Source of the DNA: Candidatus Nomurabacteria bacterium
Lineage (GTDB): Bacteria > Patescibacteriota > Minisyncoccia > Phycocordibacterales > UBA918
DNA: 64,000 bases
Direction of reading: 5' to 3'
Assembly: GCA_020632015.1 (NCBI GenBank)
Contig: JACKGI010000001.1
Span: 156,949 to 220,948, forward strand
The position numbers were made by a program, and so were the translations under genes. This document shows positions 1,837 to 31,170 of the stretch, one piece after another; within the stretch, counting starts at the first letter, position 1; every line of letters begins with the position of its first letter. Below the pieces are notes generated by a model. The model ran no database searches, was not told the origin of the DNA, and saw only the letters and a list, made by a program, of their open reading frames with translations.

Positions 1837-2691
1837 ATGGCAAGGCAACTCAGTAGTGTAGGCAAACATCATCTGCAGACATGGAAATTATTAAGATCAT
1901 GCTTCGATTTTGAGAAGGATGTTCAGGATTTGAGAACAGGTGCATTAAAGGGGCTTAATTTCGGAGAGTCGCATAAGAAAGACAAAAAGTATGTAAAAGC
2001 CGCTCACTGTTTGATGGATAGGTATTGTCTACCTGGAAACTTTCTAATCCCTTTGATGGTGTACCTAGATAATCCGAATGAAGATATTGAAGAATTACTG
2101 CCTGATCGAAATTACTCATTTACCCACAGAAGAACATATGATGTGGAGGGTAACATTGATTGGTCTGGCATGGATATGCCTAGTGTTGAAGTGCAGATTT
2201 ATGCTCAGTTGACTGCGTCGGAGTGGAAGAATCTCCAGCGTGACTTTAAAGAATATTCTAAGTACAGCTTCCCAAACTCTGGGGCCCTTAAAAAGTCGCG
2301 CACGAAAGGCAGTGTGGAGCGAGATATTGCAGTTATGGAAAAACTACAGGCTACCTCAAAAGGTACTAAAGTTGAGGAGTACAAAGGATATCTAAAGAAA
2401 TTCCACGACCAACTTTTGTCAGAAGGGAAGGACCCTAAGACACACAAAGTTTTTAATCGGCTTAAAAATAAGAAGGCTGTGTTTCTAAGGTCTAAAACGG
2501 TGGGTAAGTATACTCGTGATGACATTGCAAAAGAGTTTGGTACTGATCGTAACCATATAGACAAGATTGAAAAGAGAACCAGAGAAACGATTGAAAAACG
2601 TTTCAAGGGGAAAAGGATGTCAGACCCTGATTCTGGCCTCACTATCAAAGAGTATCTTCGGAAACAGCGGGAGAGGAATAAGTCTCTTTAA
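1837..2691 (+). CDS. hypothetical protein with a C-terminal sigma-70 region-4-like HTH; cargo of the putative integrative element
   Basis: The C-terminus (YTRDDIAKEFGTDRNHIDKIEKRTRETIEKRF) resembles a sigma-factor region 4 HTH. It is followed by a terminator at about 2758-2781. The true start may be internal. Confidence 0.35.
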   Translation: MARQLSSVGKHHLQTWKLLRSCFDFEKDVQDLRTGALKGLNFGESHKKDKKYVKAAHCLMDRYCLPGNFLIPLMVYLDNPNEDIEELLPDRNYSFTHRRTYDVEGNIDWSGMDMPSVEVQIYAQLTASEWKNLQRDFKEYSKYSFPNSGALKKSRTKGSVERDIAVMEKLQATSKGTKVEEYKGYLKKFHDQLLSEGKDPKTHKVFNRLKNKKAVFLRSKTVGKYTRDDIAKEFGTDRNHIDKIEKRTRETIEKRFKGKRMSDPDSGLTIKEYLRKQRERNKSL

Positions 2692-2757
2692 GACAAAACA
2701 ATATACACTTTTGTCCGTATTTTGTAGGAGCTGGAAATGCTATGCTACAGCTAAGTA

Positions 2758-2781
2758 GCCGTCCGCAAGGGCGGTTTTTTT
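2758..2781 (+). terminator. rho-independent terminator
   Basis: Hairpin gccgtccgcaagggcgg followed by ttttttt. Confidence 0.6.
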
Positions 2782-3038
2782 GTTGCTTAAACAATTCAAT
2801 ACGATGTGAGTATCAGCGCACTCACTAAAATCAAACGGGCTCTAAACATCTGGTTAATACATGTAAATTCCTCGCTCTGACTGGCGGCTTGTCAACGAGG
2901 ACTCCCATGTGTTCGTCAGGTGCAACTTCTTCTTATCCGTATATTGAGGACAGTATGGATGATGATGTCTTAAGTATTGATACATATCGTGTCACTCGCT
3001 CTCATGGGAGGACAATAGCCGCTAAAACTACGCTAACT

Positions 3039-3191
3039 ATGTCGACAAAAAAGAAGGAAAGAAAGACAGTCCAAGTTCGAGTATCAAAGAAAATTCATAA
3101 GATGCTTCGTGCTTTGGCCTTGGAAGAAAAAATGACCATGTCGAAATTGGTCGACCTATCAATTAAAAGCTATATAAACAGAAACTATTAA
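3039..3191 (+). CDS. ribbon-helix-helix (CopG/Arc/MetJ-like) DNA-binding protein
   Basis: The C-terminal 50 aa (MSTKKKERKTVQVRVSKKIHKMLRALALEEKMTMSKLVDLSIKSYI) has the beta-strand plus two-helix RHH pattern. The internal Met at 3039 is the likely start of the longer 2889..3191 ORF. Confidence 0.4.
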   Translation: MSTKKKERKTVQVRVSKKIHKMLRALALEEKMTMSKLVDLSIKSYINRNY

Positions 3192-3336
3192 TCTATGAAC
3201 CAAAGAATTATCCAAATGCTATTTAGAGGGTCTGTCCTCAAAGGCTTGGAACAACAGTCATTTGAATTGGCTGCACCTATTGAAGAGGTTGTGATGGAAG
3301 CTGTAGAGGAGTATTTAGCAAGTAATTTAGAGCAGA

Positions 3337-3630
3337 ATGAGATCAATAGAAGCGAGATTCAAGAAATGCCAGGAAAAGAACCCGTCATACGGTAACTACA
3401 TTTGCTTAATGCAGGGAGTTTATAGGCAGGGATTCACTAGGAGGACCATCTACAATGCATTTAAGAAATTCATCCCAAGTGACGATTATCTTGAGGAGGA
3501 GATGCCACAGCTAATTTCTCAACTAGAGGTACACACTAAACGTTCTGAGGACGACATCTCAGGGCAGAAAAATGACCAGGAAGGTGCCTTAAATAATAAA
3601 CACGACCCAGACATCAAAGACAGAAAATAA
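3337..3630 (+). CDS. hypothetical small protein (element cargo)
   Basis: 97-aa ORF with no recognisable motif. It overlaps the 3195..3395 ORF, so one of the two may be spurious. Confidence 0.25.
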   Translation: MRSIEARFKKCQEKNPSYGNYICLMQGVYRQGFTRRTIYNAFKKFIPSDDYLEEEMPQLISQLEVHTKRSEDDISGQKNDQEGALNNKHDPDIKDRK

Positions 3631-3794
3631 TGACCCCAATTGAAACATTCAAAGAAATATTAGAGAAGGAGAATATTCAGGTTCCTGAGGAGTCTTTGGA
3701 GGTGTTTCGTGATCTGATTGACCTGCAGGCGGATTTGATTCTGGATCGTTGGTTATACGAGAAAGAAATGTCCGTGGCGGGGTAGAATAGAGTT

Positions 3795-5543
3795 ATGCAA
3801 AAGGAGCGACCAAAAACATGTTTAGCGAGTGCTCGTATTAGTAGCGCTCAGCAAATGGCAGGGGAGAGTCTAGACGACCAGGTCCGGGCTATTAAACAAG
3901 CGGCGGGACATAAGGGTCTAGAGATTCTTCCTGGTGGTGAGGTTGCGACTGAGATATTTACCGGAACGAAACGGCGGCCGGTATACGAAGAGCATATTCA
4001 GTACATCAAGGATAATCCTGGGAAGGTAGGCTATTACTTAATCCGTTATATCGACCGCTTTACTAGGGCCGGAGCATCTTCATACAACGAGATGAAGAAA
4101 GAGCTGGAGGAGCTTGGTGTTGCGCTGATAGACACAAACGGAATCATCCAAGAGTCACGCAACATGCCAGAACTTGCCGAGCTTGGTTTTGAGTATGAGT
4201 GGAGTAAAGAATCGCCAAGTGACATGACAGAGGTGATGTTGGCCACAACCGCCAAGCAGGAGCGTGACACTATTCTTAAACGAACCATTCCAAAACAAAT
4301 TGCCTACACCCAGAAAGGTTTTCAGATTGGTCGGCCTGATGATGGTTTTATGAATCATCGGACTCAAGTGGGAACACAGATTCGTTTTGTGCAGATTCCA
4401 GACCCGAAGCGTGCACCGTTTATCCAAAAGATTTTTGAGTTACGTGCCGCCAATAGACACACTGACCGAGAAATACTTCATATTGTGAATGAAGAGTTAG
4501 GCTTTCGGACCAAGAAGTTTCATCGCTGGAATAAGACACATACAGCGATCATTGGGGAAGGTGGTGGTAAGAAGCTGTCCATAAAACAGCTTCAGCGTAT
4601 TTACCAGCGGCCAGCCTATGCAGGTGTGCTTTGTGAGAAGTGGACCCACAATAAGCCTATTAAGGCGCAATGGGATGGACTGGTGAGTATTGAGCTTTGG
4701 AACAAGGCAAACCGCGGCAAAATCTACATCAAAGAATATGGTGATGATTTGTTAGAGATTCTGTACGACTACAAGACAGAGAGGCCGGTCTTTAAGCGTC
4801 TTCGTTACAATCCAGAATATCCATTCAAGTGTGTTTGTTGTCCTGAGTGTGGCAAACCTCTAAAGGGCAGTGCTCCACGGGGTAGAAAAGAAACATATCC
4901 GCGGTATCACTGTGAGCGTGGCCATAAGTCATTTACGATTGATCGGTCCCAAATGGATGAGACAGTCGGAACTTTCCTAGATAACGTGGAGTTTGATGAT
5001 GACTACACAAAGGTGTTGGAGGAAGTATTGGTCCGTAAATTACGTAAGAGACAACAGGATATTGTGCAGGAGTCAAAGAATCTGAATGAACGTGTGGCTA
5101 TGCTGAAGGCACAGCAGGCGAGTACACTCAAGGCACTTATCACTACAGAGAATCCAACCATCAAAGCGATGCTCGAAAAGGAACTTGAGAAAGTAGTGGT
5201 TGATATCAAGAAAGCTGAGTCGGTCCGGTTCTCAGTTGATCTCACTGAAGACAATATTGCTGAGTTGGTTAGTTACGCGAGGAAAATAGTGGAATCACCC
5301 AAAGAAGTGTTGATAGATAAAGACAATCCGCTCCGCCAGAAGCAGTTATTCAAGCTTTTCTTTGAGGACCTTCCAACCTATGAAGAATTGGATAGTGGAA
5401 CCGCTAAAAAACGCTTTCTTTTCAACAGGAATTGTATCGTCGAGACCCCTCAAAATAGTGAGAAATCCCATCAAGGGCGGCTACCGGGAATCGAACCCGA
5501 ACTATCGGTACCACAAACCGATGCACTAACCGTTATACTATAG
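3795..5543 (+). CDS. large serine recombinase (phage-type serine integrase)
   Basis: N-terminal resolvase catalytic domain with a catalytic Ser motif (ASARISSAQQ) and a YIDRFTRAG motif. It is followed by a recombinase domain, a Zn-ribbon (CVCCPECG...YHCERGH) and a long coiled-coil. The last 23 codons run antisense across tRNA-His. Confidence 0.8.
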   Translation: MQKERPKTCLASARISSAQQMAGESLDDQVRAIKQAAGHKGLEILPGGEVATEIFTGTKRRPVYEEHIQYIKDNPGKVGYYLIRYIDRFTRAGASSYNEMKKELEELGVALIDTNGIIQESRNMPELAELGFEYEWSKESPSDMTEVMLATTAKQERDTILKRTIPKQIAYTQKGFQIGRPDDGFMNHRTQVGTQIRFVQIPDPKRAPFIQKIFELRAANRHTDREILHIVNEELGFRTKKFHRWNKTHTAIIGEGGGKKLSIKQLQRIYQRPAYAGVLCEKWTHNKPIKAQWDGLVSIELWNKANRGKIYIKEYGDDLLEILYDYKTERPVFKRLRYNPEYPFKCVCCPECGKPLKGSAPRGRKETYPRYHCERGHKSFTIDRSQMDETVGTFLDNVEFDDDYTKVLEEVLVRKLRKRQQDIVQESKNLNERVAMLKAQQASTLKALITTENPTIKAMLEKELEKVVVDIKKAESVRFSVDLTEDNIAELVSYARKIVESPKEVLIDKDNPLRQKQLFKLFFEDLPTYEELDSGTAKKRFLFNRNCIVETPQNSEKSHQGRLPGIEPELSVPQTDALTVIL

Positions 5544-5548
5544 CCGCC
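5475..5548 (-). tRNA. tRNA-His (anticodon GTG) with a G-1:C73 pair
   Basis: Folded by hand. G-1; acceptor GCGGCTA/TAGCCGC; U8. D-stem GTAT/GTGC. Anticodon stem TCGGT/ACCGA with loop TTGTGGT (GTG). T-stem TCGGG/CCCGG with loop TTCGATT. Discriminator C pairs with G-1, which is diagnostic of tRNA-His. CCA is not encoded. Confidence 0.8.
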
Positions 5549-5771
5549 ATGTTTCAGGCGGGATTTTCGGAGAAAATCCCGCCGTCGTGGGTACATTTAT
5601 ACCTATTTTTTAGCAAAAAGTCGAGAGCTAAAAAATGTTTTTGTTTCTTATACTATATAATATAACCATGGACCAAACAGGATTAATGGTAACCTTGACC
5701 TTTACGCTTATTTTGGGTGCGGGGATTGGGTTTTATTTAGCAAGATTTATTTTTTAATTAAGATTTTTTGT

Positions 5772-6164
5772 ATGAAAGGATTTGTTGCAGAATTTAAGGC
5801 CTTTGCCATGAAGGGCAATGTGATTGACTTGGCAGTAGCGGTAGTTATTGGAGCGGCTTTTGGAAAGATTGTCTCCTCACTAGTAGCAAACATCATCACT
5901 CCAATTATTGGTTTAATCATGGGTGGAATTGATTTTTCTGGTATGGCTTACATGGTAGGGGACGCTGAAATCACTTATGGTGTGTTCATTCAATCAGTAA
6001 TCGACTTCTTAATTGTTGCTTTAGTTATCTTTATGGTAGTGAAAGGCATTAATAAGGCAAAGGACGCCTTGGATAAAGAGGAGGAGGTCAAAGAAGAGAA
6101 GCCAGCTGAACCGTCAGAAGAAGTAAAACTATTGCGAGAGATTAGAGATTCGGTAAAAAAATAG
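5772..6164 (+). CDS. mscL: large-conductance mechanosensitive channel MscL
   Basis: The N-terminus ([38 protein letters not shown]) is the MscL signature. Two TM helices and a charged C-terminal helix. Confidence 0.85.
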
Positions 6165-16363: not shown

Positions 16364-17374
16364 ATGGATAAAAAACACCCAGAGTATCAATATTTGGATT
16401 TGTGCCAAGATATTTTAGACAATGGAGCTGATAAGGAACTTTTTTTCAATGATGTTGTTTTGGAGGAGTATAAAAAGAAAGGGGAGAAACCACCTTTCAT
16501 TCGCTCAGTTTTCGGTCGACAAATTCGGTTTGATTTATCAGAGGGATTCCCACTACTTACAACCAAAAGAACTTTCTGGCGAGGGATTACCACTGAGCTT
16601 ATGTGGTTTTTGTCTGGTAGTTCAAACATCAAGCCACTAATAGACGCAAATAACCATATTTGGGATGAGTGGGCTTGGAAGATGTATCACATGTGGGCGA
16701 TTGAGAATGCTCCAGATGAGGACATGACCCAAGATGAGTTTATTGAAAAGCTGGCCAGCTTGCCAGAGGAGGACGAGTTTGTGCAGAAATGGGGTGACCT
16801 TATTACTATCTATGGTCGAATGTGGAGACGCTGGCCAGCCAAAGACGGTCGAGAAATTGACCAACTTGCTTGGGTAATTGAAGGGTTAAAGAAAAAACCA
16901 GACCGAAAATCCTATGTAATAAATGCGTGGAACCCAGACTTCATTTATGAAATGGCTTCAGAGGGCCAGCAATCACAAGTGCCACCGTTTTGTCATACCA
17001 TGTTTCAGTTTCAAGTAGCTAATGGAAAACTAAATCTAGGGTTGTACCAACGTTCAGCCGATGTGTTCTTGGGTGTGCCATTCAACATCGCTAGTTACGC
17101 ACTGTTGCTACACATGGTGGCGCAGGTAGTCGACATTCCAGCTGGGGAGTTTGTGCATACTTTTGGTGATGCGCATATTTATTCTAACCACTTTGAACAA
17201 GTAAAAGAACAACTTACTCGAGAACCAATGAAGTTCCCAGAACTAAAATTAAATCCAGATATTAAAGACATTGATGACTTTAAGTTAGAAGATATAGAGT
17301 TAGTAGGATACGAATCACACCCAAGTCTAAAGGCTGAAATAGCCAATATCGGGGGATTTGAGAAGAAGAAATAA
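16364..17374 (+). CDS. thyA: thymidylate synthase (ThyA type)
   Basis: [22 protein letters not shown], the PPCH catalytic Cys region ([13 protein letters not shown]) and a [21 protein letters not shown] block. Confidence 0.9.
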
Positions 17375-17914: not shown

Positions 17915-18577
17915 ATGTCAGGAAAACTAATAGTAATAGAAGGAGCAGACGGGGCGGGTAAGGCTACGCAGTCTAAGCTCCTAGCTGAACGACTTAAGGC
18001 AGAAGGAATGCAGATTGAAGGATTGGAGTTTCCACGTTATGAAGAGACTTTTTTTGGTTCGTATATTAGAGAATGGATTGATGAAGTACATGGAAATTTT
18101 ATTGATTTGGATCCGAGACTCGCTTCGATTTTATTCGCTGGTGACCGATTTGAGGTAAGGGAAAAAATTACCGGTTGGTTGAATGAAGGTAAGCACGTCA
18201 TTCTCGATAGATATGTGAGCGCCAGCATGCTTCATCAAGGGGCAAAATTCAGTGACAATGAGAAGCGGGGAGCATTTTTACTTTGGTTGGCAAAACTGGA
18301 GTACGAAGTATTTAAGTTGCCACGCCCTGATCTGGTTGTGTATCTTGATATGCCAGCCGAAATGAGACACGCTCTCCTTACCACTGATGAAAGCAAGCCA
18401 AATCTTGGCCATACCGAAACAGATGCCGTCTATCAAGCAGCTGTTCAAAATTCAGCTGTACAAGTTGCTGGATTGGAGGAATGGAAGATTGTTTCTTGTC
18501 TGCACGAAGACAAGCTAAGAAGCAAAGATGATATTAATGCTGAACTTTACGGGATTGTTAGACCTTTACTTAATTAA
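17915..18577 (+). CDS. tmk: thymidylate kinase
   Basis: P-loop IVIEGADGAGKATQ, a DRY motif and an LID region. Confidence 0.85.
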   Translation: MSGKLIVIEGADGAGKATQSKLLAERLKAEGMQIEGLEFPRYEETFFGSYIREWIDEVHGNFIDLDPRLASILFAGDRFEVREKITGWLNEGKHVILDRYVSASMLHQGAKFSDNEKRGAFLLWLAKLEYEVFKLPRPDLVVYLDMPAEMRHALLTTDESKPNLGHTETDAVYQAAVQNSAVQVAGLEEWKIVSCLHEDKLRSKDDINAELYGIVRPLLN

Positions 18578-19130: not shown

Positions 19131-20399
19131 ATGAACGAATACGAACACATCAAAGAACAAGACACTGCAGTTTACAATGCTCTCATCGGTGAAGAAGAAA
19201 GAGAGCGTTCTGGAATCGAATTAATTCCAAGCGAAAACTACGTATCTATGGCTGTGCGAGAAGCCGCTGGATCTGTCCTGACTAACAAATATTCCGAGGG
19301 CTATCCGGGCAGGCGTTATTACGGAGGACAAGAATATACAGATGTTGTTGAAACAATTGCTATAGAGAGAGCCAAAGCGCTTTTCAAAGCAGGTTACGCA
19401 AATGTTCAGCCGTTAGGAGGCGCAGCAGCTAATGTGGCCATGTACTTTGCCTTGATGGAACCTGGTGACACGGTGCTTGGAATGGATCTATCTCATGGTG
19501 GGCACCTTACTCATGGTCACCCAACTACAAGTATCAACAAAGTATTTAACTTTGTTCGATACAAAATGAAAGATATTTCTACTGGAGAAATTGATTATGA
19601 TGAACTCCGAGAAGTGGCTTTGAGAGAAAAACCAAAAATTATTTTAGCTGGATTTTCTGCCTATAGTCGTGAACTTGATTATCAAAAGTTTGTAGACATA
19701 GCAAAAGAGGTGGGGGCTTATACAGTAGCTGATGTTGCACATATTGCAGGAATGATTGCTGCTGGAGTACTTAAGAATCCATTTGACTATGGGTTTGACG
19801 TGATGACGATGACTACCCACAAATCACTTCGTGGCCCACGCGGAGGAATGATTGTGGTAAGGGACAACGAGGATATTGCTAAAAGAATTAACAAAACCGT
19901 TTTCCCAGGAGTACAAGGTGGTCCTCACATGCATATTATTGCTGCTAAGGCAGTTGCTTTTGGTGAGGCACAACAACCAAGTTTTAAGATTTATGCAGAG
20001 CAAGTATTAAAAAATGCCAAAGCTATGGAATCAGTTTTCTTAGAAGAAAATATTCGCTTACTGTGTGGCGGAACTGATAACCACTTATTGCTAGCAGACG
20101 TGCATAGTTCACTTGGTGTAACAGGACAAGAGGCAGAGACTTTACTCGATGAGGTTGGTATTACTTTAAATAAGAACATGATTGCGGATGAGCCTCGCTC
20201 GGCACTGGATCCTTCAGGGATTCGCTTTGGTACTCCTGCCATGACCACTAGAGGAATGAAAGAAGAACAGGCAACCAAACTAGCTCAACTCATGATTAGA
20301 ACTTTACGGTCAAAAGACGATGTGAAAGAAAAGGAAATTATCAAACAAGAAGTGATTGATTTGTGTGAAGCATTTCCAGTTCCAGAAAAATTTGTCTAG
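19131..20399 (+). CDS. glyA: serine hydroxymethyltransferase
   Basis: LIPSENYVS, HGGHLTHGHP and a PLP-Lys region (TTHKSLRGPRGG). Confidence 0.9.
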   Translation: MNEYEHIKEQDTAVYNALIGEEERERSGIELIPSENYVSMAVREAAGSVLTNKYSEGYPGRRYYGGQEYTDVVETIAIERAKALFKAGYANVQPLGGAAANVAMYFALMEPGDTVLGMDLSHGGHLTHGHPTTSINKVFNFVRYKMKDISTGEIDYDELREVALREKPKIILAGFSAYSRELDYQKFVDIAKEVGAYTVADVAHIAGMIAAGVLKNPFDYGFDVMTMTTHKSLRGPRGGMIVVRDNEDIAKRINKTVFPGVQGGPHMHIIAAKAVAFGEAQQPSFKIYAEQVLKNAKAMESVFLEENIRLLCGGTDNHLLLADVHSSLGVTGQEAETLLDEVGITLNKNMIADEPRSALDPSGIRFGTPAMTTRGMKEEQATKLAQLMIRTLRSKDDVKEKEIIKQEVIDLCEAFPVPEKFV

Positions 20400-21582: not shown

Positions 21583-21852
21583 ATGTTTGAAGGATTTTTT
21601 GGGGCCAAGAAGAAGCCAGAAGTAGAGCAGGTTGATAAAGTAGAATTATCAAAAACAATAGAAGAAATGGAAGAGTCTGCTCGAATATATAAAGAAGAAA
21701 AAGCTCAGGAACCAGTGGAAGAACCAATTAAATATGACAATGGAATTGATTGGCAAAATCCAGAAGAGATGCTAGATAAGGAGGAAGGTGGTGTATTTAC
21801 TGGTGGCAGCCTAACAAAAGAGGATAGAAAGGCTATAGAGAAGGAAAAATAA
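21583..21852 (+). CDS. small acidic hypothetical protein
   Basis: 89 aa, E/K-rich. Followed by the terminator gccggccagaatgcttcgcgttctggccgac at 21863-21896. Confidence 0.3.
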   Translation: MFEGFFGAKKKPEVEQVDKVELSKTIEEMEESARIYKEEKAQEPVEEPIKYDNGIDWQNPEEMLDKEEGGVFTGGSLTKEDRKAIEKEK

Positions 21853-22000: not shown

Positions 22001-25000
22001 ATGAATAAAAAAATGCACGGTCGTGAAAACGATTCGGTTGAAGTTGTAGATGTTTCTAAGTCAGAAACAGCAGAGAGAGAAGAAGCCATGCAGGCCTTTT
22101 GGGTAGAGCATGATATTTTTAATAAGAGTTTAGAGAAACCTGGTGGTGTAGATTTTATTCAAGACGGACCCGACCAAGCTTCGCAAACGGCGGGCAAGGA
22201 TTTTGTTTTTTATGATGGTCCACCTTTTGCAACTGGTTTGCCACATTATGGTCATATTCTGGCCGGCACAATCAAGGATGCTATTCCAAGATTTTGGACA
22301 ATGAATGGTTATCGGGTACGTCGAAAGTGGGGTTGGGATTGTCATGGTTTGCCACTTGAGAATATTATCGAAAAACGTTTAGGACTTGCCACTAAGCGAG
22401 ATATTGAAGAATACGGCATACAAAATTTTAATGAACAAGCTCGTGATGCAGTAATGGAGTACGCCGATGACTGGCGAAAAATAATCCCACGCATGGGCAG
22501 GTTTGTTGATATGGAAGATGATTATAAGACCATGGACAGTACTTACACCGAAAGCGTTTGGTGGGTATTTAAATCACTGCATGAAAAGGGTCTTGTATAC
22601 GAAGGCTTTAAAAGTATGCACTTGTGTCCACGTTGCGGAACCACACTTTCAAACTTTGAGGTAAATCAAGGCTACAAAGACATCAAAGATTTATCCGTGT
22701 TTGTTGAATTACCGTTGATAGATGAAGAAAATATTTCATTAGTAATCTGGACAACCACCCCGTGGACACTGCCGGGCAATATGGCAGCCGCTGTACATAA
22801 TGATTATGATTATGCGGTTGTAGAAAGAAAAACAGATGAAGGTAATACAAAAAGATTTATCGTAGCGAAAGACAGAGTGAAAGCAGTTTTTGGCGAAGAT
22901 GGCTATAAAATCATTGAGACTAGAAAAGGTTCAGATTTGGTTGGTAAGTCATACAAACCACCGTTTGACTATTTGGAGAAACAAGATTTTGAAAACAAAA
23001 ATAACGCCTGGAAGGTTCATCACGCTGATTATGTAGAAATCGGAGAAGAAGGAACCGGCTTAGTTCATATTGCTCCGGCTTATGGAGATGACGATATGAG
23101 ATTGGCAGAAAAGAATAATGTACCAATCATTCATCACGTTGACGAGGCAGGGCATTTTATGGATTTTGTTTCCGATTTTGCTGGACAACTAGTCAAGCCA
23201 AAAGACGACGAAGAGTCTGAGATAAATCACATGGATGCTGACATTGAGATTATTAGAGCCTTGGCAGGTAAGGGAATTCTTTTTGATAAAGAAAAAATCA
23301 CTCATAGTTACCCGCACTGCTGGCGATGTGATACGCCACTTTTGAACTACGCAACCACATCATGGTTTGTTGAAGTAACTAAAATCAAAGACCAGCTAGT
23401 AGAAGCCAACGACAAAGTAAAATGGGTTCCCGAGCACGTTGGTAAAAACCGTTTCGGAAAATGGCTAGATGGCGCTCGTGATTGGGCCGTGAGTAGACAA
23501 AGATACTGGGGAGCACCGTTGCCAATTTGGAAGAATCCAACTACAGGCGAATACAAAGTATTTGGTAGTTTAGCTGAGATTCAGGAGTATGTACCAAAGA
23601 GCGGTAATAAGTATTTCTTGATGAGACATGGTGAAGCAGAAAGTAATATTGAGAGAGTAATTAGGACAGATGTAAACTATGAAGATAATCTTACTGACCT
23701 TGGTGTTAGGCAGGTAGAAGAAACTGCGGCGGAACTTAAAAAAGAAAATATAGATTTGATTATAGTATCTCCATTCCATAGAACTAAAAAAACCGCTGAG
23801 ATTGTAAGAGAAAAATTGGGTCTTTCTTCAGAACAAGTTGTTGTCGATGAAAGAATAAGAGAAATTCAAGCTGGGGCAGAATTTCAAGGTAGAAAATGGA
23901 ATACACACCAAGAATTATATAAAGATTTCAAGGATCAATTTACTAGGGTGGTTGAAGGGGTTGATGAGAACAGAGTTGACGTACAGAAAAGAGTCGGTGA
24001 TTTACTTTATTCATTAGAGAATAACTACAAAGATAGAAATATTTTGATTATCGGTCACGTTAGCTCAACTTTTGCTACAGCGTGTGTCTCTGAGGGGGCA
24101 AATATTGATAGAGCGGTAGAGATTAGAGAAAAGAATGAATTTTGGTTAGATAATGCAGAAGTTCGAAAGCTTAAATTCATTCCAATCCCTCACAACGATA
24201 ACTACGAACTAGATTTTCATCGTCCATATATAGACCAGATTGACTTGTATGAAGGGGAGGTAAAACTAGAACGAGTGCCAGATGTATTTGACTGCTGGTT
24301 TGAGAGTGGTTCGATGCCTTATGCTCAACACCATTATCCGTTTGAGTGTGCTGAAGATTTTGAGAATAAGCATTTCCCAGCAAACTTTATTGCTGAAGGC
24401 TTGGACCAAACTCGAGGATGGTTCTATTCGCTCATTGTTCTAGGGACCGCTCTTTTTGGTAAATCACCGTTTGAAAACGTAATTGTTAACGGGACGGTTT
24501 TGGCAGAGGATGGACGCAAAATGAGTAAGTCATTACAAAATTATCCAGACCCAATGGATGTAGCTCACACAATTGGTGCTGATGCCATGCGCTTTTATCT
24601 GTTGTCTTCACCGGGTATAAAGGGGGAAGATTTTAACTTTATTGAAAAAGAAGTTCTGGAACTACAAAGAAAAAACATTGGTCGTCTACATAATGTTCTG
24701 ACGATGTACGAAATGTTTGCTGACGATACCTCGGCATCTAGTGATTCAGATAATGTTCTAGATAAATGGATTTTGAATCGTCTTAACCAACTGGTTTCAG
24801 AAACGACATATGGATATAAGAATTATGAACTAGATAAGGCCACTCGACCAATTACCGAGTTTGTTGACGATTTATCTGTATGGTACTTACGTCGTAGTCG
24901 CGACAGATTTAAAGGAGAAGATACGGAGGATAGAGTTAAGGCGCTAGCTACGCTTCGTCATACACTAAGTATTCTTGCATTAGTGATGGCTCCATCGATG

Positions 25001-25564
25001 CCTTTTTATGCTGAATATCTTTGGCAAAAAGTAAAGAAGGAGTCTGATTCTGAAAGCGTCCATTTAGCAAAGTGGCCAGAAGCGGATGAAGTTAACACGG
25101 ATATATTGGCAGAGATGCAAAGAACTAGAGATATTGTGACCCAAGCGCTAGAGGCTCGAACGAAGGCTGGCATAAAAGTGCGACAGCCAATCGCAAAAGT
25201 TTCAGGTCCTGAATTATCTGAGGAACTTAGCGAGGTGGTGTTGGATGAATTAAACGCGAAAGTTTACGAATCTGCTGAAACCGTAGCAATTGATACAAAT
25301 CTAACTCCAGAGCTTATTTCTGAGGGTGCGGTGCGAGAGCTTATGCGTGCAGTGCAAGGTAGACGTAAGTCAGAAGGGTTGGCTCCGCAAGATTCAGTTG
25401 TCTTAACAGTAGATACCTCTGACGAAGGAAAAAGTGCAATTAATTCACATATTGATTTAATTACCAAAACAGTTGGAGCTAACTCCATTGAATTTGCAGA
25501 AGTAGAAGGCGAGCCTGTAAAGGCCGGAGACTTAACTTTTAAGTTTCAAATTAAAGTAATCTAA
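22001..25564 (+). CDS. ileS: isoleucyl-tRNA synthetase with an embedded histidine-phosphatase (PGAM-like) domain
   Basis: HIGH motif (PHYGHIL), GWDCHGLP, the editing domain, and KMSKS (GRKMSKSL). An extra block of about 200 aa (about nt 23590-24190) is inserted between WGAPLPIW and DFHRPYID. It begins LMRHGEAESN (RHG histidine-phosphatase signature) and contains IIGHVSS. Confidence 0.9.
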   Translation: MNKKMHGRENDSVEVVDVSKSETAEREEAMQAFWVEHDIFNKSLEKPGGVDFIQDGPDQASQTAGKDFVFYDGPPFATGLPHYGHILAGTIKDAIPRFWTMNGYRVRRKWGWDCHGLPLENIIEKRLGLATKRDIEEYGIQNFNEQARDAVMEYADDWRKIIPRMGRFVDMEDDYKTMDSTYTESVWWVFKSLHEKGLVYEGFKSMHLCPRCGTTLSNFEVNQGYKDIKDLSVFVELPLIDEENISLVIWTTTPWTLPGNMAAAVHNDYDYAVVERKTDEGNTKRFIVAKDRVKAVFGEDGYKIIETRKGSDLVGKSYKPPFDYLEKQDFENKNNAWKVHHADYVEIGEEGTGLVHIAPAYGDDDMRLAEKNNVPIIHHVDEAGHFMDFVSDFAGQLVKPKDDEESEINHMDADIEIIRALAGKGILFDKEKITHSYPHCWRCDTPLLNYATTSWFVEVTKIKDQLVEANDKVKWVPEHVGKNRFGKWLDGARDWAVSRQRYWGAPLPIWKNPTTGEYKVFGSLAEIQEYVPKSGNKYFLMRHGEAESNIERVIRTDVNYEDNLTDLGVRQVEETAAELKKENIDLIIVSPFHRTKKTAEIVREKLGLSSEQVVVDERIREIQAGAEFQGRKWNTHQELYKDFKDQFTRVVEGVDENRVDVQKRVGDLLYSLENNYKDRNILIIGHVSSTFATACVSEGANIDRAVEIREKNEFWLDNAEVRKLKFIPIPHNDNYELDFHRPYIDQIDLYEGEVKLERVPDVFDCWFESGSMPYAQHHYPFECAEDFENKHFPANFIAEGLDQTRGWFYSLIVLGTALFGKSPFENVIVNGTVLAEDGRKMSKSLQNYPDPMDVAHTIGADAMRFYLLSSPGIKGEDFNFIEKEVLELQRKNIGRLHNVLTMYEMFADDTSASSDSDNVLDKWILNRLNQLVSETTYGYKNYELDKATRPITEFVDDLSVWYLRRSRDRFKGEDTEDRVKALATLRHTLSILALVMAPSMPFYAEYLWQKVKKESDSESVHLAKWPEADEVNTDILAEMQRTRDIVTQALEARTKAGIKVRQPIAKVSGPELSEELSEVVLDELNAKVYESAETVAIDTNLTPELISEGAVRELMRAVQGRRKSEGLAPQDSVVLTVDTSDEGKSAINSHIDLITKTVGANSIEFAEVEGEPVKAGDLTFKFQIKVI

Positions 25565-26143
25565 ATGGCCTACGTTACCTACACTACAGAAGCGTTAGTG
25601 TGTGGTACTTTCAATCGAAATACCGCTGATGGCTCTTTTCTATTGTTCACTCGAGAGGCAGGCATGTTGTACGCCGATGCTCGCAGTGTAAGAGAGGAGC
25701 GTTCACGTCAGCGTTATGCACTGCAAGATTTTTCACTAGTTAGAGTCTCGCTAGTAAAAGGTAAGCGAGGTTGGAAGGTGGGCAGTATTGAATCATTAAA
25801 GAATTACTATGCGACAGCCACAGACAAGTCTGCCAGGGGGAGTGTCGTGTCACTTTTTCGACTGTTACGTCGTTTTCTTAAGGGGGAGGAAACAGCCACC
25901 GAGCTTTTTGACCTTACCAAAGAAAGTCTTGAGGTATTGCAAAAAAATACTGAGGAAAGACTTTTTGTGGAAGAAGTTATTCAACTCAGAATCTTATCCC
26001 TGCTTGGCTATGTGGATACCAAAAAAATTCCTGAAAATATAAGATATGAAAGCCCATCACTAATTGTTAAACACAGTACGGCTGAAACTCAGAACAAAAT
26101 AAACCAACTATATTCCCATGCTATTGATGTAAGTCACTTGTAA
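25565..26143 (+). CDS. RecO-like recombination mediator (N-terminal OB-fold pattern)
   Basis: TEALVCGTFNRNTADGSFLLFTREAGMLYADARSVRE...FSLVRVSLVKGKRGWKV resembles the RecO N-terminal domain. It starts at the ileS stop. Confidence 0.35.
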   Translation: MAYVTYTTEALVCGTFNRNTADGSFLLFTREAGMLYADARSVREERSRQRYALQDFSLVRVSLVKGKRGWKVGSIESLKNYYATATDKSARGSVVSLFRLLRRFLKGEETATELFDLTKESLEVLQKNTEERLFVEEVIQLRILSLLGYVDTKKIPENIRYESPSLIVKHSTAETQNKINQLYSHAIDVSHL

Positions 26144-28090: not shown

Positions 28091-29467
28091 ATGGAAAAAA
28101 ATTCAGATACGATGGAGAAGGTGGTTTCGCTTTGTAAGCGACGTGGTTTTGTATTTCAAGGTAGTGAAATCTACGGAGGACTAAAAGGCACTTGGGACTT
28201 TGGTCCTCTTGGTGTGGCCTTAAATAACAATATTAAGCGTGAGTGGTGGAAGATGTTTGTCGATGGACGAGAAGACATGTACGGGCTTGATGCAGCGATT
28301 TTAATGAACGAAAAAGTCTGGGAAGCTAGTGGACACACCGGAGCTGGTTTTTGTGATCCTTTAGTAGAAGATGTCGAGACAGGGGAGAGATTCAGGGCTG
28401 ACCATTTACTTAAGGAAGCTGGTGTCGATGCTGATGGTATGACTCTCGAACAAATTAATCAAGAAATTAAGGAAAAAGAACTCAAAAGTCCAAAAGGAAA
28501 TAGTCTGTCTGAAGCAAGACAATTTAACTTAATGTTTGAGACGCAAGTTGGGGCGCAGGGCGATATGAAGTCATACTTACGACCAGAAACAGCTCAAGGG
28601 ATTTTTGTTAATTTCAAAAATGTAGTCGACTCAATGGCGCCAAAGATTCCGTTTGGTATTGCACAAATCGGAAAAGCTTTTCGAAATGAAATTGCTCCCC
28701 GCGAATTTCTTTTTCGAGTGCGTGAATTTGAACAAATGGAAATTGAGTATTTTGTAAAAGAAGAGCAGTGGGAAAGTGAGTTTGAAAAATTACGTCAAGA
28801 TATTGTTAAGTGGCATAAGCACCTAGGACTTTCTGACGAAAATATTAGAGAGTACGAAGTACCTGAAAACGATTTGGCTCACTACAGCAAGCGAACAATT
28901 GACTTCGAATACAACTATCCAGGTAAAGGCTTCGATGAGTTGGCTGGTTTTGCTTATCGAACAGACCACGACCTTAAGAATCATATGGATGCTAGTGGCA
29001 CTACAATGGAATACATCGAACCAGACGGTTCTCGTTTTGTTCCACATGTACTAGAACCATCTTTTGGAGTTGGTCGAGCACTTACTGCAGTTTTGTGTGA
29101 AGCATATACAGAAGATGAAATGAACGGAGAAGTAAGGACCTATCTTAAGCTTCCTAAACACCTTGCGCCATTTAGAGTGGCAGTATCTCCGTTGCTTAAG
29201 AATAAACCAGAGCTAGTAGAAAAAGCTCGCGAAGTATTTAAAGTTCTTAAAACAGAATTTGGAAACGTAGCTTGGGATGACAACGGAAATGTCGGAAAGC
29301 GATATCGTAGACAAGATGAAATCGGAACTCCAAGTTGTATTGTTATTGACTTTGAAACTCTTGGACAAGAGGCTCCAGAGTTGGCTGATACAGTGACTGT
29401 CCGTAATCGAGATACGGGAGAGCAAGAAAGGGTGGCGATTGCTGATTTGATAAATTACTTGCGCTAG
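28091..29467 (+). CDS. glyQS: glycyl-tRNA synthetase, dimeric alpha2 (GlyQS) type
   Basis: The N-terminus (VVSLCKRRGFVFQGSEIYGGLKGTWDFGPLG) and class II motifs are typical of eukaryote/archaeal-type GlyRS. Confidence 0.85.
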   Translation: MEKNSDTMEKVVSLCKRRGFVFQGSEIYGGLKGTWDFGPLGVALNNNIKREWWKMFVDGREDMYGLDAAILMNEKVWEASGHTGAGFCDPLVEDVETGERFRADHLLKEAGVDADGMTLEQINQEIKEKELKSPKGNSLSEARQFNLMFETQVGAQGDMKSYLRPETAQGIFVNFKNVVDSMAPKIPFGIAQIGKAFRNEIAPREFLFRVREFEQMEIEYFVKEEQWESEFEKLRQDIVKWHKHLGLSDENIREYEVPENDLAHYSKRTIDFEYNYPGKGFDELAGFAYRTDHDLKNHMDASGTTMEYIEPDGSRFVPHVLEPSFGVGRALTAVLCEAYTEDEMNGEVRTYLKLPKHLAPFRVAVSPLLKNKPELVEKAREVFKVLKTEFGNVAWDDNGNVGKRYRRQDEIGTPSCIVIDFETLGQEAPELADTVTVRNRDTGEQERVAIADLINYLR

Positions 29468-29745: not shown

Positions 29746-31170
29746 ATGAGCGATAAAACTCCCAAGTATATAACCACCACTCTGCCTTACGTTAACTCAA
29801 AGCCTCACATTGGTTTTGCGACTGAATTAGTGCGAGCAGATACTTTTGCTCGGTACCAAAAGCTACTAGGTCATGAGGTTTTTCTTAATACTGGTACAGA
29901 TGAGCACGGACAAAAGATTTATGATAAGGCAAAAGAAGAGGGAATAGACACCCAAGAATTTGTAGACGGTCTTGCTGAAGAATTCAAAAATCTTCTCCCA
30001 GAACTTGGCATTTTACCAGAGGCACACTTTATTCGTACTACTGACGAACATCATATAAAAGCAGCTCAGGAAATGTGGCGACGCTGCAAAGAAAAGGGCG
30101 ATATCTATAAGGCTGAACATGAGGTGAAATACTGTAAGGGCTGTGAGCTGGAAAAGACTGATTCGGAGCTAGAAGATGGAAAATGCCCACTTCACCCAAA
30201 CAATGATATTGAAATACGAGAAGAAGAAAACTACTTCTTTAGATTTTCTAAGTATCAAGAACCACTACTAAAACTCTACGCAGAAAACCCAGAGTTTGTC
30301 GTGCCCGACTTTCGCCTTAATGAAATAAAAAGATTTGTCGAAGGAGGTTTGCAGGATTTTAGCGTTTCTAGACTGAAATCAAAAATGTCTTGGGGTGTTC
30401 CGGTGCCAGATGATGAAGAGCATATTATGTATGTGTGGTTTGATGCCTTAACTAACTATATTTCAACCACTGGTTGGCCAGAGAAGGAGGATTTTGATGG
30501 CTGGTGGCCAGGAGTCCAATTTGCAGGTAAGGACAACCTACGTCAGCAAAGCGCAATTTGGCAAGCTATGCTTATCTCAGCTGGTATTCCAAATTCTACT
30601 CAAGTTTTTGTTGGGGGATTCATTAATAGTGGTGGTCAAAAAATGAGTAAGTCACTCGGAAATGTGATTAGTCCAAACGAATTGACTGAACGGTACGGAA
30701 GAGAAGCGACTAGGTATCTGTTACTCAGACACGTCCATCCTTTTGAGGATACTGATATTACTTGGGACAGGTTAGACGAATGGTATACCGCCAATTTGGT
30801 AAACGGACTAGGTAACCTCACTGCTCGAATTATGAAGATGGCGGAGACTCATCTGGATGGTCCTGTGAACACCAAGGATATTAATACTATGGATATAGAT
30901 GCTCTGGATAATTATCAATTCCAAACCGTTTTAGACGGAGTGTGGGCAGGTATTGGTGCAATGGATGAATATATTGCTGAAAATGAGCCTTTCAAAGTGA
31001 TTAAAACTGACAAAGAGCAAGCAATTGAAATGATTGTTAAATTGGTCAAAGATTTACACGAAATAGCAGAATCACTGGTCGTGTTTATGCCAGAAACCGC
31101 CGAAATCATCCTTCAAGCAATAAGAGAAAACAAAAAACCAGAAAACTTATTTGCTCGCTTAGAAAGTTAA
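29746..31170 (+). CDS. metG: methionyl-tRNA synthetase (short form)
   Basis: HIGH-region (KPHIGFA), a Zn knuckle (CKGCELE...CPLH) and KMSKS (GQKMSKSLGN). Confidence 0.85.
   Translation: MSDKTPKYITTTLPYVNSKPHIGFATELVRADTFARYQKLLGHEVFLNTGTDEHGQKIYDKAKEEGIDTQEFVDGLAEEFKNLLPELGILPEAHFIRTTDEHHIKAAQEMWRRCKEKGDIYKAEHEVKYCKGCELEKTDSELEDGKCPLHPNNDIEIREEENYFFRFSKYQEPLLKLYAENPEFVVPDFRLNEIKRFVEGGLQDFSVSRLKSKMSWGVPVPDDEEHIMYVWFDALTNYISTTGWPEKEDFDGWWPGVQFAGKDNLRQQSAIWQAMLISAGIPNSTQVFVGGFINSGGQKMSKSLGNVISPNELTERYGREATRYLLLRHVHPFEDTDITWDRLDEWYTANLVNGLGNLTARIMKMAETHLDGPVNTKDINTMDIDALDNYQFQTVLDGVWAGIGAMDEYIAENEPFKVIKTDKEQAIEMIVKLVKDLHEIAESLVVFMPETAEIILQAIRENKKPENLFARLES

Follow-up and report, generated by a model that had tools for sequence, protein, structure and literature searches.

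A 64,000-nucleotide stretch of the genome of a Candidatus Nomurabacteria bacterium (contig JACKGI010000001.1, positions 156,949 to 220,948; hereafter the window) encodes an isoleucyl-tRNA synthetase (IleRS) that carries a histidine phosphatase domain inside its own body. The host protein is the housekeeping type-2 IleRS of a bacterium of the Paceibacteria, within the Patescibacteria or candidate phyla radiation (CPR), and its gene, ileS, occupies positions 22001..25564 of the window. On this polypeptide three active sites are predicted, those of aminoacylation, of CP1 editing and of the phosphatase. On balance, this organization probably reflects a conserved partnership between IleRS and the phosphatase, hard-wired here into one chain, in which the phosphatase would be an accessory catalytic partner. 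As established by comparing related genomes, the partnership exists in at least four genomic forms, with patterns of conservation that indicate selection on catalytic residues of both partners.

Aminoacyl-tRNA synthetases (aaRSs) are among the best-studied enzymes. Both component families, IleRS and the histidine phosphatases, are well known, and it is their nested combination that appears to be new. To our knowledge, the extra modules of aaRSs serve editing, tRNA binding or signalling. No phosphatase figures among the aaRS domain superfamilies catalogued by AARS Online, and no account of a phosphatase within IleRS or next to it was found in the literature, including a 2026 preprint on IleRS domain evolution. 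An earlier reading of the window made from the letters alone (the sequence-only reading), which knew of no phosphatase fold embedded in an aaRS, agrees with the literature searched. In databases, these proteins are plainly labelled 'isoleucyl-tRNA synthetase' or 'class I tRNA ligase family protein'.

The synthetase and the inserted segment

The ileS open reading frame (ORF) encodes 1187 residues and is interrupted by neither a stop nor a frameshift (the gene, its parts and the recO gene that follows it are on the forward strand, +). Two in-frame ATGs, Met1 and Met5, stand at its beginning (22001-22015). Since a database protein identical to this one (P0001, of a Logan assembly) is annotated from Met5 (nt 22013; 1183 residues), the true start may be either ATG, an uncertainty of four residues. 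The ileS equivalog model TIGR00392 is matched with 879 bits for a cut-off of 621.4. The Pfam scan splits tRNA-synt_1 into two stretches and places Anticodon_1 at residues 921-1065 and DUF5915 at residues 1089-1186. The sequence-only reading had proposed a continuous IleRS core with an in-frame histidine phosphatase domain in its body. Both parts of this proposal hold, with His_Phos_1 as well as TIGR00392 above their cut-offs and the HIGH and KMSKS signatures lying in one ORF. Read from the sequence, the HIGH signature is PHYGH (residues 81-85, 22241..22255) and KMSKS is found at residues 840-844 (24518-24532). P81, H82, G84, H85, K840, S842 and K843 are invariant among 68 homologues.

The synthetase is built from two parts. 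The N-terminal one (residues 1-530, 22001..23590) comprises the first half of the Rossmann fold, the CP core, the CP1 editing domain, CP2 and the first half of CP3, and runs through WGAPLPIW (residues 503-510) and GSLAEIQEY. The C-terminal one (residues 737-1187, 24209..25561) holds the remainder of CP3 (DFHRPYID), CWFESG, DQTRGWF, KMSKS, the SC-fold, the anticodon-binding domain and DUF5915. The editing site appears intact because its motifs WTTTPWT (residues 250-256) and GTGLVHIAPAYGDDD (residues 351-365), together spanning 22748..23095, are conserved; the CP1 domain matches the isolated editing-domain structures 1wk8 and 1udz. The C-terminal organization, with DUF5915 rather than a zinc-binding domain, is that of type-2 and not type-1 enzymes, and the best PDB matches are likewise type-2 (E about 1e-205, against about 1e-87 for type-1). 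The window holds this one IleRS only. Mupirocin-resistance enzymes of the MupA/MupB kind were considered and set aside (646 and 691 bits for a cut-off of 1900).

Alignment to the eukaryote-type IleRS structures 8wnd and 9w01 defines the insert precisely. Residue 530 of the query corresponds to residue 491 of the chain and residue 737 to residue 498, so that 206 residues (531-736, 23591..24208) replace a six-residue loop of insert-free type-2 IleRS. This loop belongs to CP3, in the delimitation given of this subdomain for Candida IleRS (PMC7191050). The boundaries agree with the segment of about 200 residues near nt 23590-24190 that had been proposed from the letters, but the connector of 30-70 residues supposed to be normal at this place is reduced to about six at the exact point of insertion. 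A profile of insert-free IleRS bodies supports the same position. The model of the full-length protein, of low confidence in the Rossmann/synthetase core (pTM, the predicted template-modelling score, 0.59), superposes on the type-2 structures 8c8v and 8wnd (TM-score by target length, about 0.7); nothing occupies the insert site in the solved type-2 structures superposed on it.

Two other views of the segment were discarded. It is not an intein, as the sequence-only reading had held: no Hint or intein Pfam model is matched, the segment begins with VPKSGN, and a phosphatase fold explains it entirely. The same reading was mistaken in stating that no HN occurs at the C-terminal boundary, near which H731-N732 is found, followed by Asp. 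The idea of a rigid junction was also abandoned, the linker motifs VPKSGN and PHND being invariant in the close clade but not in all enzymes having their insert at this place (site A, see below).

A complete histidine phosphatase of the PhoE/PspA type

By sequence and modelled structure, the insert is a complete histidine phosphatase of the PhoE/PspA type, about 200 residues long and predicted to be catalytically competent. Pfam His_Phos_1 (PF00300) is matched at residues 539-706 with an E-value of 1.2e-27. The score is 97.3 bits in the context of the whole protein and 101.9 for the insert alone, for a gathering threshold of 21.7; the Pfam search and the alignment to type-2 IleRS that had been proposed as checks thus both support the domain and its boundaries at 530/737. 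By domain scan, insert model and fold comparison, the phosphatase itself extends over 23615..24118. The AlphaFold model of the insert is of good quality (pLDDT, the predicted local distance difference test score, 89; pTM 0.86) and displays the alpha/beta fold of branch 1 of the histidine phosphatase superfamily.

As had been proposed, the RHG motif lies at the start of the insert (residues 542-544), and a GH pair follows at residues 685-686. Conservation was assessed by aligning the query to its 120 best homologues, which are 63-100% identical to it. In all 121 sequences R542, H543, N549, R594, E621 and H686 are invariant. Arg542 and His543, the latter being the phospho-accepting histidine, are encoded at 23624..23629. 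Arg594, the second arginine of the phosphate pocket, is found in SPFHRT (23780..23782), and His686, the second catalytic histidine, in IIGHV (24056..24058). Glu621 (23861..23863), the candidate general acid, is replaced by Asp in free-standing relatives. This strict conservation occurs within what is otherwise the least conserved region of the protein (mean column identity 0.57, against 0.83 in the synthetase body). In a wider set of 111 divergent domains, drawn from every host site and from free-standing genes, the Arg/His/Arg/acid/His set is kept in essentially all members. Because it is so nearly invariant despite an overall identity of only about 30%, selection on catalysis is indicated.

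The closest folds and sequences are those of metabolic phosphatases, namely PspA, PhoE, GpgP, HFP and CobC, whereas the protein phosphatases score lower in the fold comparison (SixA 14.9, PGAM5 14.1, Sts-2 13.2). The sequence-only reading had suggested that the domain might act on a nucleotide or on a phosphate linked to tRNA, or be a regulatory module. Its modelled fold is more in favour of a phosphomonoesterase with a small substrate than of a protein phosphatase or a module with a regulatory function only. Since the two 'cap' insertions of small-substrate members are present, the phosphatase would be active and would hydrolyse a small phosphomonoester. No named enzyme can be assigned. The dPGM models (NF038349, TIGR01258) give 74.9 bits for a cut-off of 225, and the mutase-specific HGN motif does not hold either, the residue after H686 varying among G, N, A, V and L in homologues. 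The phosphatase equivalogs also remain below their cut-offs (CobC 63.8/162.9, PspA 53.2/350, GpmB 46.6/261, SixA 40.3/74.5). A link to riboflavin through the Aquifex HFP (9MMH) was rejected as well, the positions of F93 and W107 being absent from the query and W169 not being conserved in the phmmer alignment.

Distribution and sites of insertion

The survey of relatives that had been suggested as a check found the insertion throughout the IleRS of the Paceibacteria. All 120 best homologues, named Candidatus Kaiserbacteria, Parcubacteria or Paceibacteria, contain PF00300 and are 1165-1220 residues long. A scan with one genome per species returned 390 relatives, the best 80 of which cover the entire insert at 41-60% identity and are metagenome-assembled genomes (MAGs) of Patescibacteria, bar one. 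The odd one (L063, JBLHGD010000014.1) is a contig with a typical site-A IleRS labelled 'Candidatus Azotimanducaceae' (Gammaproteobacteria), and is probably a mis-binned piece of Patescibacteria. The insert is thus present in at least 80 Patescibacteria genomes at the species level. Further away, in an exhaustive search of representatives of clusters at 50% identity, 100 of the 150 nearest match the hidden Markov model of the insert, down to an overall identity of 37%. A word-index search with the insert alone returned five proteins, free-standing relatives among them. As judged from these comparisons, the nested phosphatase is a widespread and ancient feature of Paceibacteria IleRS, and not a peculiarity of this genome.

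The phosphatase does not always sit at the same place. When the 100 phosphatase-bearing representatives were aligned to a profile of 48 insert-free IleRS bodies, three sites were distinguished. Site A, the CP3 loop (around residue 538 of the query), is used in 86 representatives and is that of the window. Several others use site B, between WFESG and DQxRGWF (around residues 783-794), and seven use site C, between the SC-fold and the anticodon-binding domain (around residues 908-917). The three sites are independently confirmed by Pfam coordinates and by the way in which landmark motifs follow one another: WGxPxP, phosphatase, WFESG for A; WFESG, phosphatase, DQxRGWF, KMSKS for B; KMSKS, phosphatase, Anticodon_1 for C. 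Some enzymes carry two copies, at A and C (P0159), at B and C (P0204, P0239), or as a tandem pair at A (P0164). The phosphatase domains are roughly equidistant from each other (25-31% identity). For this reason, trees are silent as to whether the domain moved within the gene or was captured separately. In a neighbour-joining tree of the IleRS body, the insertion states are interspersed, which means either many events or poor resolution.

In these lineages IleRS is, judging from the sequences, a hot spot of domain insertion. Other enzyme-type domains are nested in relatives (P0233, P0248, P0211, P0257, P0272, P0265 and P0213), giving proteins of up to 1859 residues. They include GNAT acetyltransferases in CP1 or CP3 of some enzymes, a Nudix-like segment in CP1 of P0265, a Ser_hydrolase or alpha-beta hydrolase at site B of P0213, and, in P0272, a segment just over the NCBIfam cut-off for the REP-associated tyrosine transposase. 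However, each of these types is sporadic, occurring in a handful of clusters, as against 100 of 150 for His_Phos.

At the nucleotide level, the nearest species genome (JACKGG010000001.1, L001; 'Candidatus Nomurabacteria' HK-STAS-PATE-28) is 60-84% identical to the window in the region they share, except for one block, and about 84% identical over ileS. The block, of about 1.75 kb and lying within the gene (about 23,351-25,150), is 89-100% identical between the two. This block is either a recent tract of homologous recombination between lineages or the mark of a chimeric or mosaic assembly. Because it spans the insert together with the 3′ part of ileS, it gives no evidence that the insert moved alone.

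The phosphatase as a neighbour of ileS

In several relatives the phosphatase is a gene of its own. The closest free-standing relative of the insert (P0122) is encoded directly upstream of an insert-free ileS, which it overlaps by 4 nt. Four more insert-free ileS genes of Paceibacteria, in genomes bearing Nealsonbacteria and Pacebacteria names (IleRS 60-82% identical), share the same kind of block, composed of argS, His_Phos, ileS, a small ORF, recO, a CLIPPER-like gene and a class II aaRS gene. All five insert-free relatives in which the upstream region can be seen have the order argS, His_Phos, ileS, recO, and two of them show a 4-nt ATGA overlap; the contigs of P0154 and P0161 end at the start of ileS and are outside this count. 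The window has the downstream part of this block in common with the separate-gene relatives: ileS is immediately followed by recO (25565..26143), then by a DUF11/CLIPPER-like gene and a class II aaRS gene. No separate phosphatase gene was found in the neighbourhood of ileS in the window.

A scan of metagenomes with the free-standing family yielded 80 loci, 71 of which have enough downstream sequence. In 54 of these 71, ileS directly follows the phosphatase gene, with a median gap of about 15 nt, and it lies within 3 kb in 10 more. Three of these loci have their match inside an IleRS of 1125-1182 residues, at site A, and here the nested copy bears the motifs of the free-standing family. Because of these three copies, the nested domain and the gene upstream of ileS are one family in two states. 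Of 80 site-A loci, 43 have an upstream argS on the same strand, its distance from ileS being in some cases no more than about 100-200 nt, and 79 have the nested phosphatase alone, with no separate one. The remaining locus (L046) has both a nested phosphatase (ileS at 2351-6004, +) and a separate His_Phos ORF of 215 residues (1624-2268, -) in the gap between argS and ileS.

The free-standing phosphatases adjacent to ileS (L083, L087, L089, L090) are strongly basic, with about 190 residues, a net charge of +18 to +22 and an isoelectric point of about 10. Their charge density is like that of IF3 and SmpB from the same loci and unlike that of the neutral metabolic enzymes encoded there. As far as composition can tell, the basic form lends weak support to a polyanionic ligand, these genomes being basic-biased overall. 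A 2H/LigT phosphoesterase gene beside one free-standing phosphatase (P0124) was considered as a clue to RNA end healing and dropped, being a singleton that recurs neither in the window nor in the 80 loci.

Partner, passenger or scaffold

The alternative that best withstands these data, possible although we would not bet on it, is that the phosphatase is a passenger. An ordinary metabolic enzyme, acting for instance on phosphoserine, a sugar phosphate or a precursor of the flavin or cobamide type, would have had its gene beside ileS and been captured into permissive loops. The two activities would then be co-expressed with no mechanistic connection. The metabolic character of the nearest folds and sequences fits such a scenario, as do the several unrelated domains tolerated in the IleRS of these lineages, the existence of relatives without an adjacent phosphatase and the restriction of the linker motifs to a close clade. 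In addition, the small genomes of the CPR may favour gene fusion. However, mere capture leaves unexplained why one family is found at three internal loops of one host, and in double copies. It does not account for the preponderance of His_Phos among nested domains either. Moreover, the simplest fusion of an upstream gene would be to the N-terminus of IleRS, and no such fusion was seen among the 150 representatives. Finally, none of the metabolic equivalog cut-offs is reached (dPGM 75/225, CobC 64/163, PspA 53/350), and the residues proposed to give HFP its specificity are not conserved. It is because one and the same family has become fixed several times over, at distinct internal loops and as double copies, because the N-terminal fusion is missing, and because His_Phos dominates where other nested domains are sporadic, that we infer an accessory role rather than that of a passenger.

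Kinase toxins that phosphorylate aaRSs are known for GltX and TrpS. It may thus be imagined that the domain is a protein phosphatase or regulatory module. It would dephosphorylate IleRS or a partner in the manner of SixA or PGAM5, for example by reversing an inhibitory phosphorylation near the KMSKS region, or would sense a phosphorylated metabolite and tune IleRS. The N-terminal part of the domain does match the SixA model partially, at 40 bits, but this remains under the 74.5 cut-off. No kinase is conserved in the neighbourhood of ileS, and neither the IleRS, the insert nor the neighbouring gene products match a defence or toxin model of PADLOC, all of which makes this explanation unlikely.

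Domain insertions in aaRSs often have binding roles, and conservation in this protein is lowest in the insert. A pseudoenzyme, its fold being kept only as a bulky CP3 extension for docking, for example, of tRNA or of a partner, is nonetheless very improbable in view of a catalytic set that is invariant in 121 of 121 sequences and nearly so in the 111 divergent domains. Lastly, although the near-identical 1.75-kb block over the insert could indicate a chimera at the nucleotide level, an artefact (two genes joined by a sequencing error, as the sequence-only reading had envisaged, an assembly chimera or an intein) is excluded because the 120 closest homologues, from many independent assemblies, all share the architecture of this continuous ORF; the same in-frame organization recurs in hundreds of independent assemblies (NCBI, JGI, ENA, Logan) at 37-100% identity, the IleRS halves on either side of the insert are both indispensable to a single fold, and no Hint or intein model is matched in a segment that the phosphatase fold explains fully.

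If the phosphatase is indeed an accessory partner of IleRS, its substrate may be sought in the aminoacylation cycle. Tentatively, and with the odds rather against this precise form, the phosphatase would remove a phosphate of the 2′/3′ type from an adenosine-bearing ligand of IleRS. This ligand could be the CCA end of the tRNA, or a nucleotide or an analogue, and its dephosphorylation would leave the substrate fit for charging or the active site free. It is no less speculative to regard the nested phosphatase as an unrecognized accessory site of an aaRS, 'substrate-sanitizing' and distinct from CP1 editing, that was repeatedly tethered to IleRS. Selection would have kept it attached to the IleRS catalytic domain's second half, through three loops or through a translationally coupled gene, across the Paceibacteria.

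Several observations weigh against the partnership. First, functional coupling is inferred from one kind of evidence, genomic association, and the adjacency data come largely from one clade and may in part be explained by inherited gene order. In two insert-free relatives near the clade of the query (P0153, P0186), a phosphatase gene is missing within 4 kb, and therefore IleRS does not strictly need a phosphatase nearby. The IleRS scaffold appears generally permissive, since GNAT, Nudix-like, Ser hydrolase and transposase-like domains are also nested in it. The neighbour-joining trees, of the phosphatase domains as of the IleRS body, are too poorly resolved to count events or to give their direction. 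As to a ligand of the tRNA type, the nested domain of the window is mildly acidic (net charge -6) and not obviously RNA-binding, and no earlier case of a histidine phosphatase that acts on the ends of tRNA was found in the literature. In the published complex of yeast IleRS with tRNA, the contacts reported for the acceptor stem are few and made by the catalytic domain, with none reported to CP3 (PMC11685878).

Comparison with known systems

The window enzyme resembles the type-2 IleRSs of known structure (T. thermophilus 1ILE, Priestia megaterium IleRS2 8C8U/8C8V, the cytosolic enzymes of yeast and Candida 8WND and 6LDK) in its HIGH, KMSKS and CP1 motifs, its anticodon-binding domain and its type-2 C-terminal domain. 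Unlike them, it has a 206-residue enzyme domain in a CP3 loop where they have six residues. It further differs from the T. thermophilus enzyme in lacking the cysteines of the CP3 zinc knuckle. These CxxC cysteines (WKCEKCGE, KKCGG) are kept in the site-A consensus, as in Thermus IleRS; in the window enzyme they have been lost, WKNPTTGE and YEGEV being found instead in the flanks of the insert (23507-23560 and 24236-24275).

Compared with PhoE, PspA, GpgP, the Aquifex HFP and CobC, all branch-1 phosphatases of about 200 residues, the window domain is nested rather than free-standing. It is only 22-27% identical to any characterized member of this group and under all NCBIfam equivalog cut-offs. 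Other aaRSs with added domains are known. The family NF040702 ('isoleucine--tRNA ligase, N-acetyltransferase domain-containing'; ileS_w_GNAT) obeys the same principle of a synthetase with an extra domain of catalytic type. However, the extra domain is here a phosphatase, and the window protein, which has no GNAT domain, was rejected as a member (329 bits for a cut-off of 1999); together with its GNAT-bearing relatives it scores 218-329 bits, which places them in a different lineage. The MetRS of Mycoplasma penetrans bears ancillary domains at its N-terminus (PMC13215547), and the domain added here, a phosphatase, is of a different kind. In PFK-2/FBPase-2 and in the mycobacterial RNase H/acid phosphatase (NF005567), the fusion is end to end and the partners act on the same or related metabolites. 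Here, in contrast, His_Phos is inserted inside the fold of its partner and no shared substrate is known.

Other genes of the window

An acidic ORF of 89 residues lies just upstream of ileS (21583-21852). It matches no family, has no relatives in 80 related loci and is lacking in the closest MAG, L001, whose alignment shows a gap of about 200 nt. Further upstream is a thymidylate/folate cluster with thyA (16364-17374), tmk (17915-18577) and glyA/SHMT (19131-20399). The downstream synthetase genes are the class II aaRS gene (28091-29467) and a short MetRS-like gene of 474 residues (29746-31170). The only tRNA gene of the window, tRNA-His with a GTG anticodon (5475-5547, -), overlaps the 3′ end of a 582-residue ORF (3795-5543, +).

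Implications

The association of IleRS with a phosphatase implies that isoleucine charging is linked to some phosphorylated substrate, and no published description of such a link has been found so far. If the phosphatase acts on tRNA or on a nucleotide, it would represent a new class of translation quality control. If it is a metabolic enzyme, the IleRS of the Paceibacteria would still be a striking natural case of the insertion of one enzyme domain within another. The inserted domains would also map permissive sites of IleRS, in CP3, in the loop after WFESG and at the junction of the SC-fold with the anticodon-binding domain, and these would be useful for protein engineering. The hosts belong to a major uncultured lineage with minimal genomes, in which each retained activity is likely to matter.

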